Shown here one piece after another: positions 763 through 62,815 of a stretch of DNA of 64,000 bases (positions within the stretch are counted from its first letter, which is position 1; each line of letters begins with the position of its first letter). This DNA is from Escherichia coli. Its GTDB lineage: Bacteria > Pseudomonadota > Gammaproteobacteria > Enterobacterales > Enterobacteriaceae. A program made the position numbers and the translations under genes. The DNA lies in the NCBI RefSeq assembly GCF_046105845.1, contig NZ_CP151004.1; one strand, written 5' to 3'. Below the pieces are notes generated by a model. The model searched no databases. It saw nothing but the letters and a program-made list of their open reading frames with translations, and was not told the origin of the DNA.

Positions 763-1090
763 GAGTTAAGAAATGACCATACTGTGACTGCAAGGCGGCG
801 TATATTACGCATTTTTTGCACGAGATGAAAGGCCAAACTTTGACCAATCCTCTGAGATGGATCAAAGAATTGCATTTAAAATGAGCGCGGCGCGATAATT
901 ACTCATAAAAATCATCATATTAGAAAATAGTGACTAAAATTTACACTCAAAGAAATTTGAGTAAGTTCTCAATTTTTCTTTATGAATGAAAATTTTGGCA
1001 CGCAAATTTGCGTAAATAATCGGCAAATTAACGTGCCTTTTGTGACATCGCTCGCACTTCGCTCTGCGTCACCCTACGGCGATGCGAAGG
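763..1090 (-). promoter_or_regulatory. dusB-fis operon promoter and upstream regulatory region
   Basis: AT-rich intergenic region immediately upstream of dusB on the minus strand; position matches the known fis promoter region. Individual sites not resolved. Confidence 0.5.
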
Positions 1091-1972
1091 TTAATTCTTA
1101 CGACCGGTAATGCGGCACCACTCTTCTTTTTCCACGACCGGGTCCAGAGCGAAGCTGTCGGCATAAGCTTCGCAAACGCTCTCTGCCTGGCTTGCCAGAA
1201 TACCGGAAAGGCCCAGCAAACCGCCTGAAACTGGCAGGACGCTGATTAACGGTGCCAGTTCACGTAATGGGCCTGCAAGGATGTTAGCGACCACCACGTC
1301 GGCTTTCATTTCTTCTGGCTGATCTTTCGGTAAGTAGAGTTCCAGACGGTCAGAAACGCCATTACGTTCGGCGTTATCGCGGCTGGCCTGAATCGCCTGC
1401 GGATCGATATCAATACCAATGGCTTTTGCTGCACCCAGTTTCAGCGCCGCGATAGCCAGAATGCCGGAACCGCAGCCAAAGTCGATGACTGTTTTACCGG
1501 TTAAATCGAGGCTGTCGAGCCATTGCAGGCACAGAGAGGTGGTTGGATGGGTACCCGTACCAAACGCCAGCCCTGGATCTAACATCACGTTGACGGCGTT
1601 TTCGTCCGGCACATCACGCCAGCTAGGGCAGATCCACAGTCGTTCACCAAAGCGCATCGGGTGGAAATTATCCATCCATTCGCGCTCCCAGTCTTTATCT
1701 TCCAGTTGTTCGATTTTATGCGCGAAGCCCGCGCCGAGCAGCGGATGGTTTTCCAGAATCGCCACCACGTCGTTCATATCGGTTTCAGCGTCGAACAGAC
1801 CAATCACATCGGTGTCGCCCCACAGGCGCGTTTCGCCCGGCAGCGGCTCAAACACAGGCGTATCGTGGGTATCCTGAAAAGTGATAGAAACGGCACCCGC
1901 TTCCATCAGCGCATCGCTAAGATCTTCCGCGTTCGCGCCGGTGGTGTTCAGTTTCAGTTGGATCCAAGGCAT
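1091..1972 (-). CDS. prmA: ribosomal protein L11 methyltransferase
   Basis: 293-aa ORF; sequence recognised as E. coli PrmA with a SAM-binding DFGCGSGIL motif. Confidence 0.95.
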
Positions 1973-1983
1973 GGCAAAACTCT

Positions 1984-3435
1984 TTATTTATCAGTAGTCA
2001 AAACGGTAGCTTGCGGGACGGATGTACCGAAACGGTTTCCGACCAGGAAAGCCAGCAAACTTAGTAGTAACGAGGGCACGATAGGGTGGAAGCCCAGGTA
2101 CTGAATATTCAGTGTCGCGAGTACGGCATACAGTACGCCGCCAACGATCATCGCACTTAGCGCGCCTTTGGCGTTGGCGCGTTCCCAGTAAAGACCCAGC
2201 ACCAGCGGCCACAGGAAAACGGCTTCCAGCCCACCGAAGGCCAGCAAATTCAGCCAGATGATCATTTCTGGCGGCTTCCAGGCGGCAAGCAGCAGCAACG
2301 CACCGAGAACTAACGTAATTACCGCCGACATCCGCTTCAGACGCGTCTCGTTTTGCATTTGATCCGGACGGATATTCAGATAGAGATCTTTAATGATCGT
2401 AGCGGAACTTTGCAGCAACTGGGCATTGATCGTCGACATGATCGCGGCCATCGGTGCAGCCAGGAAGATCCCGGCAGCAAACGGTGGCAGCACTTTTACC
2501 ATTAACGTCGGGATCACCAGGTCCGGTACGGTGAGATCGGGGATCACCGCCCGACCTAACGCTCCGGCCAGGTGCATACCGAACATCAGGATTGCGACCA
2601 CAATCGTACCGATGATGATCCCCCGATGTACGGCTTTGCTGTCTTTATAAGAGATACAGCGCACCGCAGTATGCGGCAGGCCAATCACGCCAAAGCACAC
2701 CAGCACCCAGAACGATGTCATAAACGCAGGCGACAGAATATCGTCAGCGCCTTGTGGCGTAACCAGTTGCGGATCGATGGTTTGCAACGTCTCTACTGCG
2801 TTGCTTAAGCCACCTGCGGCATGTACCACGCCAATAAGCAGCACAATGGTGCCAATCAGCATCACCAGCCCTTGCATAGTGTCGTTCAGCACGCTGGCGC
2901 GAAAGCCACCAAAGGCGGTATACAACGCAATGCTGATACCGAAAATCAGCAGCCCGGTTTCATAAGGAATACCCGCCGCGGTTTCCAGCAGGCGCGCGCC
3001 GCCGATAAACTGCACGGTCATCGCGCCAATAAACGCGACCAGCAAACTCAAACTCGCCAGCCACACCAAAAGACGACTCTGGTAGCGGGCAAACAGCATA
3101 TCGTTCAGCGTCACTGCATTGTAGCGGCGCGCAAGAATCGCGAACTTCTTGCCGAGAATACCGAGTGAAAGCCAGACTGCAGGAAGCTGAATCATCGCCA
3201 GCAATACCCAGCCCAGGCCGTATTTGTAAGCAGCTCCAGGCCCGCCGATAAACGAACTGGCACTGATATAGGTCGCGGTGAGCGTCATCGCCAGCACAAT
3301 ACCGCCCATAGAGCGGCTACCGAGGAAATACTCATTAAGGAAGGTGCCGGTGCTCCGTTTACGCATCGCATAAACAGAGATACCGAACACCACCACCAGA
3401 TAGGCGACCAGCGGTAGAATCACTTCAAGCTGCAT
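1984..3435 (-). CDS. panF: sodium/pantothenate symporter
   Basis: Multi-pass membrane ORF recognised as PanF; start placed at the second ATG (MQLEVILPL...) as in K-12. Confidence 0.93.
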
Positions 3436-3667
3436 CGTCATCCTCCAGTGGGATATCGCGATAGATAAATTTCACCATCGCCCAGCACAGTCCAATAAAC
3501 AGCAGCGGCGTCAGGATGCAGGCCATCTCAAACCAGCGCGGAAAGCCGGTAAAACCGGGGGCAACGCCAGGTAAGTAAGCGGCTACTAACCATACCGCCA
3601 GATACAAAAGGGTCAGCCCCAGCGCCCAGCGCGCCTCTTTATGGGCCTGAACAAAACGAGTGTCCAT
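3425..3667 (-). CDS. yhdT: small inner-membrane protein YhdT (DUF997)
   Basis: 80-aa ORF with two hydrophobic segments; overlaps the panF start as in K-12. Confidence 0.85.
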   Translation of the reverse strand: MDTRFVQAHKEARWALGLTLLYLAVWLVAAYLPGVAPGFTGFPRWFEMACILTPLLFIGLCWAMVKFIYRDIPLEDDDAA

Positions 3668-3731
3668 TTTTTGTCCCTGATGGGTGAAGAAAGCGGGGAT
3701 TGTACCTTATGGGGGTTGTCGATCCCCAGTA

Positions 3732-3758
3732 ATAAAAAAGGCCGGAAAATCCGGCCTT
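3732..3758 (-). terminator. rho-independent terminator downstream of accBC
   Basis: GGCCGG-AAAAT-CCGGCC hairpin followed on the minus strand by a T6 run, just after the accC stop. Confidence 0.75.
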
Positions 3759-3775
3759 TTGACGCTTTTGCAGTC

Positions 3776-5125
3776 TTATTTTTCCTGAAGACCGAGTTTT
3801 TTCTCCAGATAGTGGATGTTAGTGCCACCATGCTGGAAGTTCTCGTCATTCATGATGCGGATCTGCAGATCAACGTTGGTTTTGATACCGTCGATGATCA
3901 GCTCCTGCAGCGCATTCTTCATGCGGGCAATCGCCACGTCACGGTTTTCACCGTAGCAAATCAGCTTACCGATCATTGAGTCATAGTACGGCGGTACGGT
4001 GTAGCCCGCGTAGATATGAGACTCCCAACGCACGCCAAAACCGCCTGGTGCGTGGAAACGGGTGATTTTGCCCGGGCTTGGCAGGAAGGTGTTCGGATCT
4101 TCGGCGTTGATACGGCATTCCACCGCATGGCCGCGAACGTGAACTTCTTCTTGCTTGATCGACAGCGGTTGACCGGCAGCGATACGCAGCTGTTCTTTGA
4201 TCAGGTCAACGCCGGTGATCATTTCAGTAACCGGGTGTTCTACCTGAATACGGGTGTTCATTTCGATGAAATAGAACTCGCCGTTTTCGAACAGGAACTC
4301 GAAAGTACCCGCACCGCGATAGCCGATATCAACACACGCTTTAGCGCAACGTTCACCGATGTAGCGACGCAGTTCCGGGGTAATGCCCGGTGCTGGTGCT
4401 TCTTCGACCACTTTCTGGTGGCGGCGCTGCATGGAGCAGTCACGTTCCGCCAGATAGATAGCGTTGCCCTGACCGTCAGCCAGTACCTGAATCTCGACGT
4501 GGCGAGGATTTTCCAGGTATTTCTCCATGTAAACCATATCGTTGCTGAAAGCAGCTTTCGCTTCCGCACGGGTCATGGAGATGGATTGTGCCAGTTCAGC
4601 GTCGCCGCGCACTACGCGCATACCGCGACCGCCGCCGCCGCCGGAGGCTTTGATAATCACCGGATAACCAATGCGTTTAGCAATGGCGCGGTTTTTATCC
4701 ATATCGTCACCCAGCGGGCCGTCAGAACCCGGTACGCAAGGAACGCCCGCTTTTTTCATCGCCGCGATTGCGGATACTTTGTCGCCCATCAGGCGAATGG
4801 TTTCTGCTTTCGGGCCGATGAAGATAAAGCCGGAGCGTTCAACCTGCTCGGCAAAGTTGGCGTTCTCGGAGAGGAAGCCGTAACCCGGATGGATTGCTAC
4901 TGCGCCGGTGATTTCAGCGGCGCTGATGATTGCCGGGATGTTCAGATAACTTTTTACTGACGGAGCAGGGCCGATACAGACCGTTTCATCTGCCAGTAAT
5001 ACGTGTTTTAGATCGCGATCCGCGCTGGAGTGCACAGCGACAGTCTTGATGCCCAGTTCTTTACAGGCACGAAGAATACGCAATGCAATCTCGCCGCGGT
5101 TGGCAATAACAATTTTATCCAGCAT
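3776..5125 (-). CDS. accC: biotin carboxylase subunit of acetyl-CoA carboxylase
   Basis: ORF recognised as AccC ([16 protein letters not shown]...); start set at the internal ATG at 5125, which has a GAGG Shine-Dalgarno 10 nt after the accB stop. Confidence 0.95.
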
Positions 5126-5135
5126 GTTCGCCTCG

Positions 5136-5606
5136 TTACTCGATGACGACCAGCGGCTCGTCAAATTCTACCGGTTGTCCACTTTCGACCAGAATTGCTT
5201 TCACGGTACCGGATTTGTCCGCTTCGATCTGGTTCATCATTTTCATGGCTTCAACGATGCACAGGGTATCGCCCACGTTGACTTTCTGACCCACTTCGAT
5301 GAACGCTTTTGCGTCCGGGCTTGGGGTGCGGTAGAAAGTACCAACCATCGGGGAACGTACGATGTGACCACTGATTTCCGCTGCTGCTGGCGCTTCCATG
5401 GAAGGAACGGTCGCCGGAGCGGCTGCGTTAGATTGAGCTGGCTGCTGCATCATTGGTGCAGCGTAAGCTTGTTGCATCACAGGGAAACTTGCGGCAGGAG
5501 CTGCACGGCTAATGCGTACTGACTCTTCGCCTTCAGAAATTTCCAGTTCGGAGATGCCTGATTCTTCAACCAGCTCGATCAGTTTTTTAATCTTACGAAT
5601 ATCCAT
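5136..5606 (-). CDS. accB: biotin carboxyl carrier protein
   Basis: 156-aa ORF with an Ala/Pro-rich linker and the EAMKMM biotinylation motif. Confidence 0.95.
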
Positions 5607-6583
5607 GAGTGGGTTCCGTACTCTTTGTTTAGTGTGATTGTGACAGGCGTTTCACCGCCGTCTGTAAAGCGTATGCCCCGACAGCTGTATGCATAGCGAT
5701 AAATTCCAGCAGGCCGGGACGCCGGTCTATTTTGCCCCAGAGTGTCAATGTTAGACTTGACGGACATTGTGCAGCGATCTGCTGCTATCCTCCGGCAAAA
5801 AACAAAATATACCTTCGTTGCGCCAATGTCACCTTTTCCGCAGCGCAAAAACTGCGTCAGGGAGGACGAGGTCGCACATTATAACGATTTCGTAGCAATT
5901 GGCAGCTAAATACTGGTCTTATCAGGGAAGATAATCAACAGCTAACATGTAAATAACCTTCAACACCGTGTAATTTGCAACAAGCCGCACAATTCACGAA
6001 ATTAGCGCCATCATCGACGGAACTTCTTATAACGTAAGGTGAAAAGCTGTAAAGCCAGCCCTGCGAAGATGAGGGGCTGCAATGAGATAATCTTCACAGA
6101 CCACAAATAATGTAGGGATGCCAGGATCGCGACAAGATAGACGACATTACGCAGCGGTTGCTGAGGATTACGCAATTTTCACTGTATCGTCTGGATAGAT
6201 GTGAATGCTAAAGCACGCAAAATTAACCGATTGACAATGCTCAGCATTAAATAGGTTCGAGTGATTAATTTGTAGTCAAACAAAATCAGATTATTCCCCC
6301 CATGGTACCAGAAATCAGTAACAGGTTAAGCGTAGCGTCGCCCAAGCAAAGCACCATAAACCTAACAGGCGACGGAGGCGTATCAATAATGGCTGTTTAG
6401 TGGAGTAACAGTGCGCATCAATTTGTGGTCAGTCGAAATCATGACTTTCCAGTTTGGATGATGTTGTGCAACTTCATGACCAAGATGTTCGACGAAAGCT
6501 GTCCGGCTAACCGCTTTTCCCGTTAACCGATTGAATAATGATTTCAAAATGAGTTCCCTCTCTTATTATTCCCTGCTAAATGG
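5607..6583 (-). promoter_or_regulatory. long ORF-free region upstream of accB (promoter plus long leader)
   Basis: About 1 kb with no ORF of 60 aa or more in any frame, lying between the acuI stop and the accB start. accB is known to have a long autoregulated leader. Confidence 0.4.
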
Positions 6584-7558
6584 TTAGTTAACCTTCACCA
6601 GCGTGCGACCCTGGATCTGGTTATTAATGATGGCCTCGGCAAATTTCGGTGCCTCTGCCAGAGATATCTCTTTTGCCGCCTGGGTATAGAATGATTCCGG
6701 TAAATCGGCGACCAGTCGCTGCCAGGCTTGTGCGCGGCGTGCTGGTGGCGTCATCACTGAATCCACCCCCTGTAAACGGACATTACGCAGAATAAATGGC
6801 ATGACCGTGGTTGGCAGAGTAAAACCACCCGCCAGACCACAGGCCGCCACGCAGCCGCCGTAATTCATTTGCGCCAGCACTTTTGCAAGCACTTTGTCGC
6901 CAACGGTGTCAATTGCCCCAGCCCAGACTTGTTTTTCCAGAGGACGGGATTCGGCAAACTCATCGCGAGGGAGAATACGGCTGGCACCTAAACTTTTCAG
7001 ATATTCATGGGTACTTTCGCGACCGGAAACGGCAACGACCTGATAACCCAATTTATGCAGCAGCGCCACGGCGGTACTGCCGACGCCACCACTGGCACCC
7101 GTCACGACAATCTCCCCATCCTGCGGGCGAACACCGGCATCTTCCAGCGCCATCACACACAGCATGGCGGTAAAACCGGCAGTACCGATAATCATTGCTT
7201 TACGCGCGTCCAGCCCTTGCGGCATGGCAACCAGCCAGTCACCTTTCACTCGCGCCTGCTCCGCCAGCCCACCCCAGTGGTTTTCACCAACGCCCCAGCC
7301 AGTGAGTAATACGTCCTGACCGGCATGAAAACGCGGATCTTCGCTGGTGCGTACAGTTCCGGCAAAATCGATCCCAGGAATCATCGGAAAATTACGGATG
7401 ATTTTTCCCTTACCGGTAATCGCCAGCGCATCTTTGTAGTTCAGGCTCGACCAGTGAACATCAACCGTGACATCGCCCTCCGGCAGGCAACTTTCGTCCA
7501 GAGTCTTTACCGATGCGAGAGTTTTGCCGTCCTGCTGTTCTAAAAGTAACGCCTGCAT
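6584..7558 (-). CDS. acuI: acrylyl-CoA reductase (NADPH), zinc-independent MDR family
   Basis: 324-aa ORF recognised as YhdH/AcuI, with a GASGGVGS nucleotide-binding motif. Confidence 0.9.
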   Translation of the reverse strand: MQALLLEQQDGKTLASVKTLDESCLPEGDVTVDVHWSSLNYKDALAITGKGKIIRNFPMIPGIDFAGTVRTSEDPRFHAGQDVLLTGWGVGENHWGGLAEQARVKGDWLVAMPQGLDARKAMIIGTAGFTAMLCVMALEDAGVRPQDGEIVVTGASGGVGSTAVALLHKLGYQVVAVSGRESTHEYLKSLGASRILPRDEFAESRPLEKQVWAGAIDTVGDKVLAKVLAQMNYGGCVAACGLAGGFTLPTTVMPFILRNVRLQGVDSVMTPPARRAQAWQRLVADLPESFYTQAAKEISLAEAPKFAEAIINNQIQGRTLVKVN

Positions 7559-7709
7559 AAGTGGTCCTCATGTGCATGATGGATTGGAAAATAATTTCTG
7601 AAGACTATACTCGCTAATGGAAAAGCAAAGCCGATGAAGCGCAATAAATTGCGAGATAAATCTGATTTGCTAGTATGCCCGCTTCCTCACTATCGGAGTT
7701 AACACAAGG

Positions 7710-9650
7710 ATGAGATTAACGACGAAATTTTCGGCCTTTGTTACGCTGCTCACCGGGCTAACAATTTTTGTGACTTTGCTGGGCTGTTCGCTAAGTTTCT
7801 ACAACGCCATTCAGTATAAGTTTAGTCATCGCGTTCAGGCGGTGGCGACGGCAATTGATACCCACCTTGTGTCGAATGACTTCAGCGCATTAAGGCCACA
7901 AATTACCGAATTAATGATGTCGGCAGATATCGTTCGTGTAGACCTGCTGCATGGTGATAAACAGGTATATACCCTGGCCAGAAATGGAAGTTATCGTCCG
8001 GTTGGCACCAGCGATCTGTTTCGCGAACTGAGCGTTCCGTTGATAAAGCATCCGGGGATGTCGCTGCGTCTGGTTTATCAGGATCCGATGGGCAACTATT
8101 TCCATTCGTTGATGACCACCGCGCCGCTCACGGGGGCGATTGGCTTTATCATTCTTATGCTCTTCCTGGCGGTACGCTGGTTACAACGGCAACTTGCCGG
8201 GCAAGAATTGCTGGAAACCCGGGCTACTCGTATCTTAAACGGTGAGCGTGGCTCTAATGTGTTGGGAACCATCTATGAATGGCCGCCCAGAACCAGCAGT
8301 GCGCTGGATACGCTGCTTTGTGAAATTCAGAACGCACGCGAACAACACAGCCGTCTTGATACGCTGATCCGCTCTTATGCCGCCCAGGACATGAAAACCG
8401 GCCTCAATAACCGACTCTTTTTCGATAATCAGTTAGCAACGTTACTGGAAGATCAGGAGAAAGTAGGTACCCACGGGATCGTGATGATGATTCGTCTACC
8501 GGATTTCAATATGTTGAGCGATACCTGGGGGCACAGCCAGGTTGAAGAACAGTTCTTCACTCTGACGAATCTGCTGTCGACATTTATGATGCGCTACCCT
8601 GGCGCACTGCTGGCGCGTTACCACCGCAGTGATTTTGCTGCGCTGTTGCCCCACCGGACGTTAAAAGAGGCTGAGAGCATAGCCAGTCAGTTAATCAAAG
8701 CCGTCGATACCTTGCCGAACAATAAAATGCTCGATCGCGACGATATGATCCACATTGGTATCTGTGCCTGGCGTAGTGGTCAGGATACCGAGCAGGTAAT
8801 GGAACATGCAGAGTCTGCCACGCGTAATGCGGGATTGCAGGGCGGCAATAGCTGGGCTATTTACGATGACTCGTTGCCTGAAAAAGGACGCGGTAATGTT
8901 CGCTGGCGTACGCTTATCGAGCAAATGCTGAGTCGCGGCGGCCCGCGCCTTTATCAAAAACCGGCGGTTACTCGCGAAGGTCAGGTTCATCATCGCGAAC
9001 TCATGTGCCGCATCTTCGATGGTAACGAAGAGGTTAGCTCGGCGGAGTATATGCCGATGGTCTTGCAGTTTGGCTTATCGGAAGAGTATGACCGCCTGCA
9101 AATCAGCCGTCTGATTCCACTATTGCGTTACTGGCCGGAGGAAAATCTGGCGATTCAGGTTACCGTTGAGTCGCTGATTCGCCCGCGTTTTCAGCGTTGG
9201 CTGCGAGATACGTTAATGCAATGTGAAAGATCGCAACGAAAACGCATAATTATTGAACTTGCAGAGGCCGATGTTGGTCAACATATCAGTCGCTTACAAC
9301 CTGTTATTCGTTTAGTGAATGCTTTAGGGGTACGGGTAGCCGTCAACCAGGCTGGTTTGACGCTGGTAAGCACCAGTTGGATCAAAGAACTTAATGTTGA
9401 GTTACTCAAGCTCCATCCGGGGCTGGTCAGAAACATTGAGAAGCGAACGGAGAACCAGCTGCTGGTTCAAAGCCTGGTGGAAGCCTGCTCCGGGACCAGC
9501 ACCCAGGTTTACGCCACCGGCGTGCGTTCGCGAAGCGAGTGGCAGACCCTGATTCAGCGCGGTGTTACAGGTGGGCAAGGGGATTTTTTCGCGTCCTCAC
9601 AGCCACTTGATACTAACGTGAAAAAATATTCACAAAGATACTCGGTTTAA
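7710..9650 (+). CDS. csrD: CsrB/CsrC sRNA turnover factor with degenerate GGDEF and EAL domains
   Basis: 646-aa ORF with two N-terminal transmembrane segments, recognised as YhdA/CsrD. Confidence 0.92.
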   Translation: MRLTTKFSAFVTLLTGLTIFVTLLGCSLSFYNAIQYKFSHRVQAVATAIDTHLVSNDFSALRPQITELMMSADIVRVDLLHGDKQVYTLARNGSYRPVGTSDLFRELSVPLIKHPGMSLRLVYQDPMGNYFHSLMTTAPLTGAIGFIILMLFLAVRWLQRQLAGQELLETRATRILNGERGSNVLGTIYEWPPRTSSALDTLLCEIQNAREQHSRLDTLIRSYAAQDMKTGLNNRLFFDNQLATLLEDQEKVGTHGIVMMIRLPDFNMLSDTWGHSQVEEQFFTLTNLLSTFMMRYPGALLARYHRSDFAALLPHRTLKEAESIASQLIKAVDTLPNNKMLDRDDMIHIGICAWRSGQDTEQVMEHAESATRNAGLQGGNSWAIYDDSLPEKGRGNVRWRTLIEQMLSRGGPRLYQKPAVTREGQVHHRELMCRIFDGNEEVSSAEYMPMVLQFGLSEEYDRLQISRLIPLLRYWPEENLAIQVTVESLIRPRFQRWLRDTLMQCERSQRKRIIIELAEADVGQHISRLQPVIRLVNALGVRVAVNQAGLTLVSTSWIKELNVELLKLHPGLVRNIEKRTENQLLVQSLVEACSGTSTQVYATGVRSRSEWQTLIQRGVTGGQGDFFASSQPLDTNVKKYSQRYSV

Positions 9651-25588: not shown

Positions 25589-26062
<474 letters not shown>

Positions 26063-34486: not shown

Positions 34487-34520
34487 TAAAACAGGCCCTG
34501 GCGGCCTGTTTTGTCTTTTT
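34487..34520. terminator. terminator between convergent sspB and dcuD
   Basis: CAGGCC-CTGGC-GGCCTG hairpin followed by TTTTGTCTTTTT. Confidence 0.75.
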
Positions 34521-34526
34521 AATGAC

Positions 34527-35894
34527 TTAATAAAATAGCGTGATTGTGGCAATCATATTCACCACGAAACCGACTGCCATGGGGATCGCTGTCCGCTTCA
34601 CTACCGCAAAAGGCGAAACGCCTGCAATTCCTGACGTAACGACCACCACCGCAGTAATCGGCGAAACAGCGCGCGCTAGCGTCGTGGCAAAATGCATCGG
34701 CATAATCATTACAACCGCTGGTACATGTAGTCCGGCTGCGATATTCGGAATAAGACTGGCAAATGACATAAACGGCGCATTGCCTGAGCCCATCACAATG
34801 GCACAAATGGCAATGACCAGCGCCATAATAATCATCACGCCAATACCGCCCAGGCCAGAATGCTCCGCACCCCTGATAACCGCATCGACAGTGCCAATCG
34901 TCGTTAAGCCTTTCGCAAATATTTCACCCGCGACCACCAGCGTTACCACGTTGGCAAACTGCGTACCCATGCCGTCAAAAAACGCCTGCACATCGTCCAT
35001 TGTTTCGCGCAAGTTATGCTTGCGGAAGAACTCAACAAACATCGTCACCGTCAAACTCAGTAACATCACCACCACCAGATGCAGTTCTGACTGCATCAGC
35101 CCGACGTGGGCAAGGAACAGCGAGCCGAGCATCAGGATTAACGGCATCACCGGTAAAATGGCGTAATAGAGCGGCGGGACATTATCGAGAGCTTTTTGCT
35201 CTGCCTGTTCGTGATTGATATTTTTATCTTTTTTGTCGAAAGCGCGTTGCACGAAAAAGTGGGAGATCGCCACCGAGATAATGACGCAAGAGGCGACCGG
35301 AAGCTGGTAGTGGAAGAAGTAAGTGGCAATTTTCATTCCTGCGACCTGGGCAGCAAAAATAGAGTTCGTTTCCAGAATCCCCCACTCAATGGACATGGTG
35401 GTTGCGATAACCGCCACCGCAGAGAGACGACTTACTCCCAGACTCACCAGCGTCGGAAATAAGGTGACCATCAGCAACATACCCAGACCGGAGGCGCTGG
35501 TAATAAACTGCGCCATGATTTGGCCGATGACGTAAGTTGCCGACAGAATAATATACGGCGAGCGAATGAGTTTTAACGGGCGGCTTAACAAGCTCACCAT
35601 CGCGCGACTTGCCCCTATGCGCTCCATATAGCGGGCATAACCGCCCACTGCCATAATCGACAGCCCCAATCCGGCAATGCGGTTGGACAGCATGCGCAGG
35701 ATTTCATTATAAATATCGACGATCAAGTAGCCGCTGCTTTTGGCGGGATCGAGCACACCACCGAACCCTAACCAGACACCGCACATCATCAGGAAGATAC
35801 CTGCGGCAGCCAGCACCACCTGAGGTTTGTAGTTTTTCAGGATCAAATAGCCCATCGTAATTAATACGATGACAGATATAATTATGCCGAACAT
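34527..35894 (-). CDS. dcuD: anaerobic C4-dicarboxylate transporter DcuD
   Basis: 455-aa polytopic membrane product ([17 protein letters not shown]...) starting at the internal ATG. Confidence 0.9.
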
Positions 35895-36273
35895 TGTTGA
35901 ACTCCGTGTCAAAAGAAAACGGTCAATCCCATAAACGGCAGATTGAAAACAATGATGTTATATTTTTTGCAAGGCTATTTATGGTGCGGATGTCGTGTTT
36001 TTAATTGTAGGTGAGGTGATTTTTCATTAAAAAATATGCGCTTATGATTATTTTGTAAGAACACATTCATAATATTCATAATGCTCGTGAATAGTCTTAT
36101 AAATAATTCAATCGGGATGTTTTTATCTGCGTTACATTAATTTTTCGCAATAGTTAATTATTCCGTTAATTATGGTAATGATGAGGCACAAAGAGAAAAC
36201 CCTGCCATTTTCCCCTACTTTCAATCCTGTGATAGGATGTCACTGATGATGTTAATCACACTGACCTTACAGA

Positions 36274-37065
36274 ATGGGCCTTATGAACGCATTTGATTCG
36301 CAAACCGAAGATTCTTCACCTGCAATTGGTCGCAACTTGCGTAGCCGCCCGCTGGCGCGTAAAAAACTCTCCGAAATGGTGGAAGAAGAGCTGGAACAGA
36401 TGATCCGCCGTCGTGAATTTGGCGAAGGTGAACAATTACCGTCTGAACGCGAACTGATGGCGTTCTTTAACGTCGGGCGTCCTTCGGTGCGCGAAGCGCT
36501 GGCAGCGTTAAAACGCAAAGGTCTGGTGCAGATAAACAACGGCGAACGCGCTCGCGTCTCACGTCCTTCTGCGGACACCATCATCGGCGAGCTTTCCGGC
36601 ATGGCGAAAGATTTCCTTTCTCATCCTGGCGGGATTGCCCATTTCGAACAATTACGTCTGTTCTTTGAATCCAGCCTGGTGCGCTATGCGGCTGAACACG
36701 CCACCGATGAACAAATCGATTTGCTGGCAAAAGCACTGGAAATCAACAGTCAGTCGCTGGATAACAACGCGGCATTCATTCGCTCAGACGTTGATTTCCA
36801 CCGCGTTCTGGCGGAGATCCCCGGTAACCCAATCTTCATGGCGATCCACGTTGCCCTGCTCGACTGGCTGATCGCCGCACGTCCAACCGTGGCTGATCAG
36901 GCTCTGCACGAGCATAACAACGTTAGCTATCAACAGCATATTGCGATCGTTGACGCGATCCGGCGTCATGATCCTGACGAAGCCGATCGTGCGTTGCAAT
37001 CGCATCTCAACAGCGTCTCTGCTACCTGGCACGCCTTCGGTCAGACCACCAACAAAAAGAAATAA
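36274..37065 (+). CDS. nanR: GntR/FadR-family repressor of sialic-acid genes
   Basis: 263-aa ORF recognised as NanR. Confidence 0.94.
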
Positions 37066-37128: not shown

Positions 37129-37151
37129 GGTATAACAGGTATAAAGGTATA
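37129..37151 (+). promoter_or_regulatory. NanR operator (three GGTATA repeats) in the nanA promoter
   Basis: GGTATA-aca-GGTATA-aa-GGTATA read directly, 36 bp upstream of the nanA ATG. Confidence 0.85.
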
Positions 37152-38119: not shown

Positions 38120-38188
38120 TAAACGCATCTGTACCCTACAATTTTCATACCAAAGCGTGTGGGCATCGCCCACCGCGGGAGACTCACA

Positions 38189-61249: not shown

Positions 61250-61974
61250 GTAAAAGCCGCTTAACGGTGTTTAGTTTCATTCGCCGTTTTCTTCTGCGGT
61301 TAATGGTTGTCCTCGCCGTTTTCTGGGGCGGGGGCATCGCGTTGTTTAGCGTTGCGCCTGTTCCTTTCTCAGCGGTAATGGCCGAGCGACAAGTCAGCGC
61401 CTGGCTGCATGGCAATTTTCGTTACGTGGCACATTCTGACTGGGTCAGTATGGATCAAATTTCGCCGTGGATGGGACTGGCGGTGATTGCCGCAGAAGAT
61501 CAGAAGTTTCCTGAGCACTGGGGCTTTGATGTCGCCTCCATTGAGCAAGCCCTGGCCCACAACGAGCGCAATGAAAACCGTATTCGCGGTGCGTCAACGA
61601 TTTCTCAGCAGACAGCCAAAAATCTCTTTTTATGGGATGGGCGTAGCTGGGTTCGAAAAGGGCTGGAAGCTGGATTAACGCTGGGGATAGAAACAGTCTG
61701 GAGCAAAAAGCGTATCCTGACGGTTTACCTGAATATCGCCGAATTTGGCGACGGTGTGTTTGGCGTCGAAGCTGCGGCACAACGTTATTTCCACAAACCC
61801 GCGAGCAAACTTACCCGGTCGGAAGCTGCATTACTGGCAGCTGTATTACCTAATCCACTTCGTTTCAAAGTCTCCGCGCCATCGGGCTACGTGCGTGGCC
61901 GTCAGGCGTGGATTTTACGGCAGATGTATCAGTTAGGCGGTGAGTCGTTTATGCAACAGCACCAGCTGGATTAA
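61246..61974 (+). CDS. mtgA: monofunctional peptidoglycan glycosyltransferase
   Basis: 242-aa ORF with an N-terminal membrane anchor and a transglycosylase motif (RGASTISQQ); overlaps the elbB stop. Confidence 0.93.
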
Positions 61975-62603
61975 GCTTCGCGCGAAGTGAGGGCCAGCGT
62001 TTTGCTCTCACGAGGTTGCAGATCTTTCTGCAGGGCAATAGCCAGCGCCGGTTGGGCGATAAATCGTTTCCATAACCGCTCTTGCTTACGCAGACAACAC
62101 CACTTCGACCAGGTCGCCAGTGGAATCAATGTGCTTTCACCAATGTTGTCGCAGACGACTGGGATAACCTCTGACTCACTGATGCGGTGACAGAGGATAT
62201 TCTGCGGCTTCAGCGACATCGTCACGATACGGTTATCCTGCAAATAACGCTTCAGCTGTTTCAGTAACTGGCGCAGTTGTGCAATGTCTTCTTCGTAACG
62301 GCATTGTTCTGCAAATTCGGTCAGCGTAATGGAAGGCTTGCCGTCGAAATCGGCAATCACATCGTAGACATAACCGGTTCCGCAATCCGTCTCAACGGTA
62401 CCGTGATAGCGCGGTATTCCACTCCAGTCTTTTAACCGGCGACCAAGATGCGCGTAGTACTTTAACTCACGGCGGATCTCTTTATCGCCACCATCGCCAC
62501 GATGGTAGACAATCTTGATACAGCGTTGGGCATCTTCCGGATGCGCATAACATTTCCGATGTCTTCCGGTGCCCAGGGGACTTTGTTCAGATAAGCGAAT
62601 CAT
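61971..62603 (-). CDS. yrbL: PhoP-regulated protein YrbL
   Basis: 210-aa ORF recognised as YrbL; convergent with mtgA, with a 4-nt overlap of the gene ends. Confidence 0.88.
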
Positions 62604-62670: not shown

Positions 62671-62815
62671 ATGCTTCTTAAGGTTTTCTTAAGGTTCTTC
62701 TGAAAGTAAAAAGCGCACGAAATGTACAATTGACGTTGATTGAGAACGATTTCAGTACGCGCTTTTCTTATTGCCGGGGGAGCTTGAAGGGATTTGAATG
62801 TCAAAGTGATGAAGA

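Follow-up and report, generated by a model that had tools for sequence, protein, structure and literature searches.

The nanR-dcuD spacer of Escherichia coli: a possible mosaic of two control regions, with a 9-bp tandem repeat as a candidate dcuD element

The model we propose for the spacer between the divergent genes dcuD and nanR of Escherichia coli, to which we give about even chances, is that of a mosaic in which two independent control regions would be split by filler DNA. The nanR gene would be transcribed from an old, weak and probably constitutive σ70 promoter of the extended -10 type (36210-36238, with a start at about 36245), and dcuD would be a cassette, lodged between the sspB terminator and the nanR promoter, that brought with it its own conserved upstream DNA of about 190 bp (35895-36085). 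A perfect 9-bp tandem repeat at the far edge of this dcuD module would most likely be part of a binding array for a putative dcuD regulator. All coordinates refer to the window, that is, the whole stretch of 64,000 nucleotides (64 kb) of E. coli DNA that was analysed.

Anatomy and conservation of the spacer

The spacer occupies positions 35895-36273 (379 bp), from the base past the dcuD start codon (CAT at 35892-35894 on the minus strand) to the base preceding the annotated nanR ATG (36274), and RefSeq places no annotation inside it. The gene order of the locus is rplM-rpsI-sspA-sspB, dcuD on the opposite strand, then nanR-nanA-nanT-nanE. The GC content of the spacer is 33%, with a minimum of 27% at 36000-36199, and that of the flanking genes is 50-57%; the initial annotation, which described an AT-rich interval of about 380 bp between the divergent dcuD and nanR starts, was correct on this point. 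The spacer differs from that of MG1655 (NC_000913.3, 3374490-3374868) by two SNPs, and it finds a match in 4373 of the 5426 complete E. coli genomes, with an identity of at least 99% in 2449 of those. It is an ordinary, uncharacterised promoter/operator region of a very well-studied genome.

On its left, the dcuD coding sequence (34527-35894, minus strand) is an open reading frame of 455 amino acids which encodes a transporter of the DcuC family, 99.8% identical to the MG1655 b3227 product, and Pfam PF03606 is on record for its relatives. In most strains, the RefSeq PGAP label for 34527-35894 is dcuC (anaerobic C4-dicarboxylate transporter DcuC); this is a naming inconsistency, the gene being the true orthologue of dcuD (b3227). 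On the right, nanR as annotated extends from 36274 to 37065 on the plus strand.

The footprinting alignment comprises the spacer from four Escherichia and 11 Citrobacter sequences and is scored by the identity of the E. coli base to Citrobacter, the neutral yardstick being the 41% identity found at the 4-fold degenerate sites of dcuD. Zone 1 (35895-36085), the dcuD-linked upstream module, is present only where dcuD is present and is 62% identical to Citrobacter, with conserved blocks at 70-97%. Its peaks are 35955-35967, which is invariant, 35973-36002 (65-81%) and 36021-36068 (70%). The invariant block, ATGTTATATTTTT, is identical in all 15 sequences and reads AAAAATATAACAT on the dcuD (minus) strand. 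In the last of the peaks lies the near-invariant TTATGAT (36042-36048, plus strand), of which six of the seven positions are identical in 15/15 sequences and the A at 36044 is conserved in at least 90%. Zone 2 (36086-36205) is an AT-rich filler of variable length, with indels; its identity to Citrobacter (31%) is at or below the neutral level, and it appears to be effectively unconstrained. Zone 3 (36206-36273, plus strand), which would represent the ancestral nanR promoter region and 5' leader, is 67% identical to Citrobacter and reaches 89% in its core (36219-36238); its conservation extends over 45 aligned loci of more than ten genera, irrespective of the presence of dcuD.

The two conserved zones, 1 and 3, are thus separated by 120 bp at neutral identity, which is not the pattern of a shared bidirectional control region. 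The initial annotation had read the interval as one divergent dcuD/nanR control region: its regulatory nature is upheld by these data, but its unity is not, since the nanR promoter persists where dcuD and the AT-rich DNA are missing.

The nanR promoter and the two haplotypes

The nanR promoter was analysed in an alignment of the 130 bp upstream of the conserved nanR ATG in 45 loci. The motif TGTGnTAnGAT is found about 45 nt upstream of this ATG in every anchorable genus, among them Escherichia, Citrobacter, Salmonella, Kluyvera, Raoultella, Trabulsiella and Yokenella, whether dcuD is present or not. In the window it would correspond to an extended -10 element (36230-36238, plus strand) consisting of a TG at 36230-36231, one base, and the hexamer TAGGAT at 36233-36238, in which the A at the second position and the T at the sixth are those of a -10 hexamer. 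The TG is kept in all but one of the 45 loci (L039, which reads TA). Where the window has TAGGAT, Salmonella and the E. coli without dcuD have TACGAT; Kluyvera has TATGAT, and TAAGAT is the form of both Raoultella and Trabulsiella. A weak -35-like element, TTCCCC (36210-36215, plus strand), stands 17 nt upstream of the -10 and is replaced by TTCACC in Citrobacter and by TTCGCC in dcuD-less E. coli. The predicted transcription start would fall at about 36244-36246, giving a leader of 30-40 nt.

In a scan with a rough weight matrix derived from textbook frequencies, this site is the top σ70 candidate on both spacer strands with a score of 10.97, which is reached by 9.7% of composition-matched shuffles; the case for the extended -10 promoter therefore rests on its conservation and not on its score. 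The consensus scan missed the site because its -35 is poor. In every genus covered, the 1053 dcuD-less E. coli genomes and many species without the AT-rich DNA included, nanR would retain this promoter of the extended -10 class at most about 65 bp ahead of its start. The supplements of the Cappable-seq and SMRT-Cappable-seq papers contain no transcription start entries for the spacer coordinates or genes.

The NanR-controlled promoters of nanA, nanC and yjhB each carry a (GGTATA)3 operator (Horne 2021, PMC8012715). In 35895-36273, GGTATA is absent from either strand, and the known (GGTATA)3 operator is located at 37129-37151, 855 bp downstream of the spacer. Neither autoregulation of nanR from the spacer nor sialic-acid control via NanR is therefore to be expected here. 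A CRP site at the nanR promoter was rejected by eye, the spacing of TGTGA-N7-TCAC being wrong and its right half unconserved.

Two further observations concern this side of the spacer. A perfect 5-bp inverted repeat, ATCCT-gtgat-AGGAT, extends across the nanR -10 region (36224-36238); the Citrobacter sequences with TAGGAT keep it, those with TACGAT and the E. coli without dcuD lack it, and it could be either a coincidence or an operator that overlaps the nanR promoter. The annotated nanR ATG (36274) is unconserved, being ATA in C. youngae and C. werkmanii and missing in several genera. The second ATG, at 36283 (MNAFD...), is conserved in all 45 anchorable loci and may be the true start of nanR.

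A dcuD-less junction is found in 1053 of the 5426 complete E. coli genomes, 1034 of those being at least 99% identical to it. The sum of 4373 and 1053 being 5426, the two haplotypes (34510-36340; L003, 6896-7070) partition the collection. In strain O83:H1 NRG857C, sspB and nanR are 107 bp apart, with dcuD and the AT-rich DNA missing. In the 1053 dcuD-less genomes, the DNA which is missing together with dcuD extends roughly from 36205 leftwards. A 1379-bp query over both gene starts gave matches in 5419 genomes; in 4326 the match covered most of the query, and in about a thousand it began no earlier than two bases ahead of the nanR ATG. When the haplotypes are aligned, only the last ~70 bp before nanR align, and poorly. 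The identity between the window and NRG857C is 60-72% at 36200-36300 and 97-100% from 36350. The K-12-type nanR promoter is closer to the Citrobacter form than to that of dcuD-less E. coli. Isolates labelled UPEC and APEC are included among the dcuD-less strains.

The right-hand break between the haplotypes is located inside nanR, at about 36340, and not at the gene start. NanR residues 1-19 (36274-36330) differ between the haplotypes at 7 of the 19 positions, one of the two forms being MSPMNAFDPQAEDSTTTIG. Recombinant combinations of the haplotypes also exist (L004).

In a tblastn survey of one genome per species with NanR (80 enterobacterial loci), the widespread arrangement is that in which sspB adjoins nanR with a gap of about 110-190 bp. 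It is found in E. albertii, Salmonella arizonae, C. koseri, C. amalonaticus, C. sedlakii and Kluyvera, as well as in Yokenella, Raoultella, Trabulsiella, Enterobacter, Lelliottia, Buttiauxella and others. The presence of dcuD between sspB and nanR, in the same orientation, is restricted to E. coli, two further Escherichia lineages, E. whittamii and the Citrobacter freundii complex. The identity of DcuD between the genera is similar to that of the flanking NanR, NanA and SspB, and the distribution of dcuD would result either from one old insertion with repeated loss or from transfer by flanking homology.

Beyond Escherichia and Citrobacter, the nearest relatives of DcuD are 73-77% identical and belong to assemblies of about 40% GC, in which (L084-L086, genes 877-7877) they are encoded in a conserved cluster that also comprises an Asp/Glu-racemase-like gene, two M20 peptidases, a MaoC dehydratase and a family III CoA-transferase. 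In the enterics dcuD thus stands by itself, as a transporter gene detached from a catabolic cluster, and no homology was found between the DNA upstream of E. coli dcuD and that upstream of these nearest non-enteric relatives. The gene content of the cluster hints at the natural substrate pathway of the dcuD transporter family.

The dcuD-linked module and its tandem repeat

According to the literature, dcuD shows no expression under the conditions that were examined and is considered transcriptionally dormant; the statement of the initial annotation that its regulation is poorly understood agrees with the papers that call the gene not expressed or silent. The start codon of dcuD and its Shine-Dalgarno sequence, GGAGT, 7 nt upstream of the ATG (35902-35906, minus strand), do not vary among the 15 Escherichia and Citrobacter sequences. 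The block AAAAATATAACAT contains a -10-like TATAAC (35962 to 35957), 63 nt before the dcuD ATG, which may be the -10 element of dcuD. No -35 partner is recognisable upstream of TATAAC on this strand. The best σ70-like score on the dcuD strand is 5.79, against 8.62 ± 1.74 for the shuffles, of which 2.6% score that low, and this depletion of σ70-like sites fits the published silence of dcuD.

The DcuD protein is 88-90% identical between Escherichia and Citrobacter, and the silent sites of the gene are saturated. This protein identity and the conservation of zone 1 above the neutral level indicate that dcuD and its upstream DNA are under purifying selection. Because protein and zone 1 are conserved in spite of the reported silence, we infer that dcuD uses an activator-dependent promoter under some other condition. 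In an evolution experiment where nanR inactivation had been selected in earlier work, an IS5 insertion in the spacer appeared in two of the three lineages. In strain WEM25 (L002, 6001-7100), an IS1 is present 58 bp upstream of dcuD, and a deletion extends from there to gltD and takes in nanR together with the entire nan operon.

At the distal edge of zone 1, where conservation decays, a repeat search identified the unit ATTCATAAT in two perfect head-to-tail copies (36065-36073 and 36074-36082), within which TTCATAAT starts at 36066 and at 36075. The direct repeat that had been reported at 36067-36090 is real, its coordinates being slightly off: the true limits are 36065-36082 and the end was overshot by 8 bases. 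Counted upstream from the dcuD ATG, the repeat occupies 171-188 bp; it is likewise upstream of nanR, 192 bp from the ATG of that gene. As only 21 of 5000 dinucleotide-preserving shuffles of the spacer produce a perfect tandem with a unit of 9 nt or longer, the repeat is unlikely to be due to chance and is no artefact of composition. Two other perfect tandem duplications of 9-11 nt are present in the 64-kb window, namely AATGCTTTA in two copies at 26010-26028, within an ORF at 25589-26059 (minus strand), and TTCTTAAGGTT in two copies at 62675-62696, just upstream of an ORF at 61971-62603 (minus strand); features of this class are therefore common.

Among E. coli strains, the copy number of the unit varies from 1 to 3, with two copies in the great majority. 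A single copy is found in ESDR8, 401651 and the O145:H28 lineage, and three copies in G5, MEW and BS15R-A; by an estimate from coverage counts, one copy occurs in about 30 genomes and three copies in about 5, of a total of about 4340. The existence of strains with one and three copies means that the exact duplication is not essential. Outside E. coli, the exact two-copy repeat is found in two of the three other Escherichia lineages, Escherichia sp. MOD1-EC7003 having one base changed in the second copy. In Citrobacter, the corresponding sequence is ATTC-N5-TTTCA, in which TTC and TCA are invariant and the core TTC-N6-TTCA is kept, and an intact TCATAA occurs at one or other repeat position in 8 of the 11 sequences. 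The identity of the repeat to Citrobacter is 67%, against 41% for neutral sites and 31% for the adjacent filler, and it is below that of the neighbouring blocks. Each repeat unit holds TCATAA, with which the conserved TTATGAT at 36042 forms an inverted pair, and no known regulator consensus was matched to the repeat. Because the zone in which it lies occurs only in dcuD-bearing genomes, and dcuD-less genomes retain nanR, the repeat would belong to dcuD and not to nanR; it is a candidate dcuD element, and not a nanR or sialic-acid element.

The main rival of this interpretation considers the repeat as a neutral duplication generated by replication slippage, and the region as generic AT-rich DNA whose occupation by nucleoid proteins silences dcuD. 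The variation in copy number, the two other duplications of the window, the lack of a match to a known motif, the position at the edge of a conserved zone and the GC content of 27-33% are all in keeping with it, and it is a serious possibility, if well short of an even chance. Neutral slippage accounts poorly, however, for the fact that about 99% of the E. coli genomes with dcuD, and all but one of the three other Escherichia lineages compared (the exception being 1 nt off), have retained two copies, for the invariance of the TTC-N6-TTCA core in Citrobacter and for an identity above both the neutral and the filler levels. Could the repeat belong instead to a promoter of the plus strand, directing a distal nanR transcript or an upstream one? 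Its second copy would then supply the -10 element (TTGTAA, 18 nt, CATAAT, 36053-36082), or the repeat would be an operator downstream of the weak promoter-like site in which the TATGAT contained in TTATGAT (36042-36048) serves as the -10, with TTTTCA 16 nt upstream (36021-36048). These two sites are the sole hits of the consensus scan, they rank 5th and 8th with the weight matrix, and TATGAT is present in 15/15 sequences with five positions invariant and the A conserved in at least 90%. The number of consensus hits is nevertheless that expected from shuffles (2 found, 1.8 expected), CATAAT is not kept in Citrobacter (CATAAA, CACGAA or CATCAA), a leader of ~200 nt through the unconserved filler would be required, and nanR works without this DNA in dcuD-less genomes; such a promoter is, to our mind, distinctly unlikely.

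Still less weight can be given to a leader peptide on the dcuD strand (36079 to 35975, 34 aa, MNIMNVFLQNNHKRIFFNEK...), in which the repeat would encode MNI-MN and whose translation would control dcuD. An open frame of 16-34 or more codons, with ATG, GTG or TTG as start, does exist at the homologous position in 15/15 sequences, a hypothetical protein figures there in a few GenBank records and the 9-bp copy variants remain in frame. But open frames of that length are common by chance at this composition; length, stop and C-terminus are unconserved, there is no clear ribosome-binding site, and the pairwise differences at codon positions 1, 2 and 3 are 0.31, 0.20 and 0.21 (permutation p = 0.72). 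The alignment fold contains 0 predicted pairs and the E. coli fold has a z of -0.38 relative to shuffles, all of which makes the leader peptide highly improbable. A σ54 promoter driving dcuD from within the spacer, or acting through it, is suggested by the presence of dcuD in the RegulonDB list of σ54 promoters quoted in PMC3118216 and by the assignment to dcuD of the ChIP peak OA06 (Bonocora 2015). The OA06 motif is, however, 2.25 kb distant, on the minus strand of the nanA-nanT spacer (38137-38153); it is found in Escherichia with or without dcuD and is absent from every dcuD-bearing Citrobacter. No ChIP peak is listed at the spacer coordinates, where the best that TGGCAC-N5-TTGCW (GG-N10-GC) finds is matches with 3 mismatches, at a frequency expected by chance (337 in the window for 341 expected). 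This promoter, largely refuted for the spacer, is scarcely credible.

Several other candidates were tried and rejected. A small protein on the dcuD strand has no coding signature, the most variable codon position being the first and not the third, and an attenuator or cis-regulatory RNA on the same strand finds 0 consensus pairs and no excess stability (z = -0.38). The spacer has no Rfam match, the best E-values (0.5-2.9) being sub-threshold and belonging to eukaryotic families (snoRNA and Xist models). For Fur, ArgR, TorR, RcsB, GlpR, ArcA, FNR and NagC, a comparison with the consensus sequences gave no convincing match conserved in both genera. As a separate observation, the OA06 motif TTGGTATGAAAATTGTA (38137-38153, minus strand) points antisense through nanA and nanR toward dcuD and is found only in Escherichia.

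Proposed model and comparison with known systems

In the mosaic model that we prefer, the half-sites of the binding array of the dcuD module would be TCATAA/TTATGA, represented by the invariant TTATGAT at 36042 and by one or two TCATAA at 36067 and 36076, so that the two copies of ATTCATAAT would supply redundant half-sites for the putative dcuD regulator. Such a regulator would be needed because the dcuD strand offers only the -10-like TATAAC and no usable -35. In the laboratory, this regulator would be lacking or inactive, and H-NS-type proteins would probably occupy the AT-rich DNA, an assumption made from base composition alone (27-33% GC), with the silence of dcuD as the outcome.

A broader proposal, which is speculative and, taken as a whole, rather unlikely, joins the two sides of the spacer. 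The dcuD gene would be conditionally expressed, the ~190-bp module with its TTATGA/TCATAA array being the operator set of an unrecognised regulator, and the dcuD cassette would be linked to a second haplotype, deeply diverged, that comprises the nanR promoter and residues 1-19 of NanR. These residues are part of the extension that mediates cooperative operator binding, and the ~19% of E. coli that are dcuD-less could set sialic-acid repression differently.

The dissection of the spacer separates the control of nanR from the dcuD-linked DNA, so that reporter and start-site experiments can be aimed at each. The purifying selection upstream of a "silent" dcuD argues for the existence of a natural inducing condition and of a regulator, and the 190-bp module defines a bait for it. 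The haplotype split (4373 versus 1053 genomes) also alters the nanR promoter and the NanR N-terminus, and could matter for the use of sialic acid in dcuD-less strains. The stakes are modest, and the results will not surprise the specialist.

In conclusion, the two sides of the spacer can be compared with several known systems. The paralogous C4-dicarboxylate carrier genes dcuB and dcuC have promoters that are induced anaerobically (PMC6414658). The dcuD gene comes from the same transporter superfamily, and an activator would be expected; it differs from them in being unexpressed under the published conditions. By eye, no FNR (TTGAT-N4-ATCAA) or CRP site was recognised in the conserved blocks of the spacer.

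The extended -10 σ70 promoters of E. coli are typified by galP1. The predicted nanR promoter is like these TGn promoters in its TG one base before the -10, its A2 and T6, its poor -35 and its leader of 30-40 nt; it is unlike them in the unusual GG in the middle of the hexamer, and its assignment comes from cross-genus conservation. The NanR-controlled nan promoters, said to have been described by Kalivoda in 2003 and 2013, reportedly carry the (GGTATA)3 operator; the spacer shares their regulon neighbourhood and differs from them by having zero GGTATA. The bgl operon is a silent AT-rich locus of E. coli which nucleoid proteins keep off and which lacks a competent promoter. The dcuD locus resembles such silent loci in its AT-rich upstream DNA, its silence in the laboratory, its patchy distribution and the IS insertions acquired in experimental evolution. 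It is unlike them in that the GC content of the dcuD coding sequence is normal (about 51%) and in that its upstream DNA is not decaying but appears to be under purifying selection.
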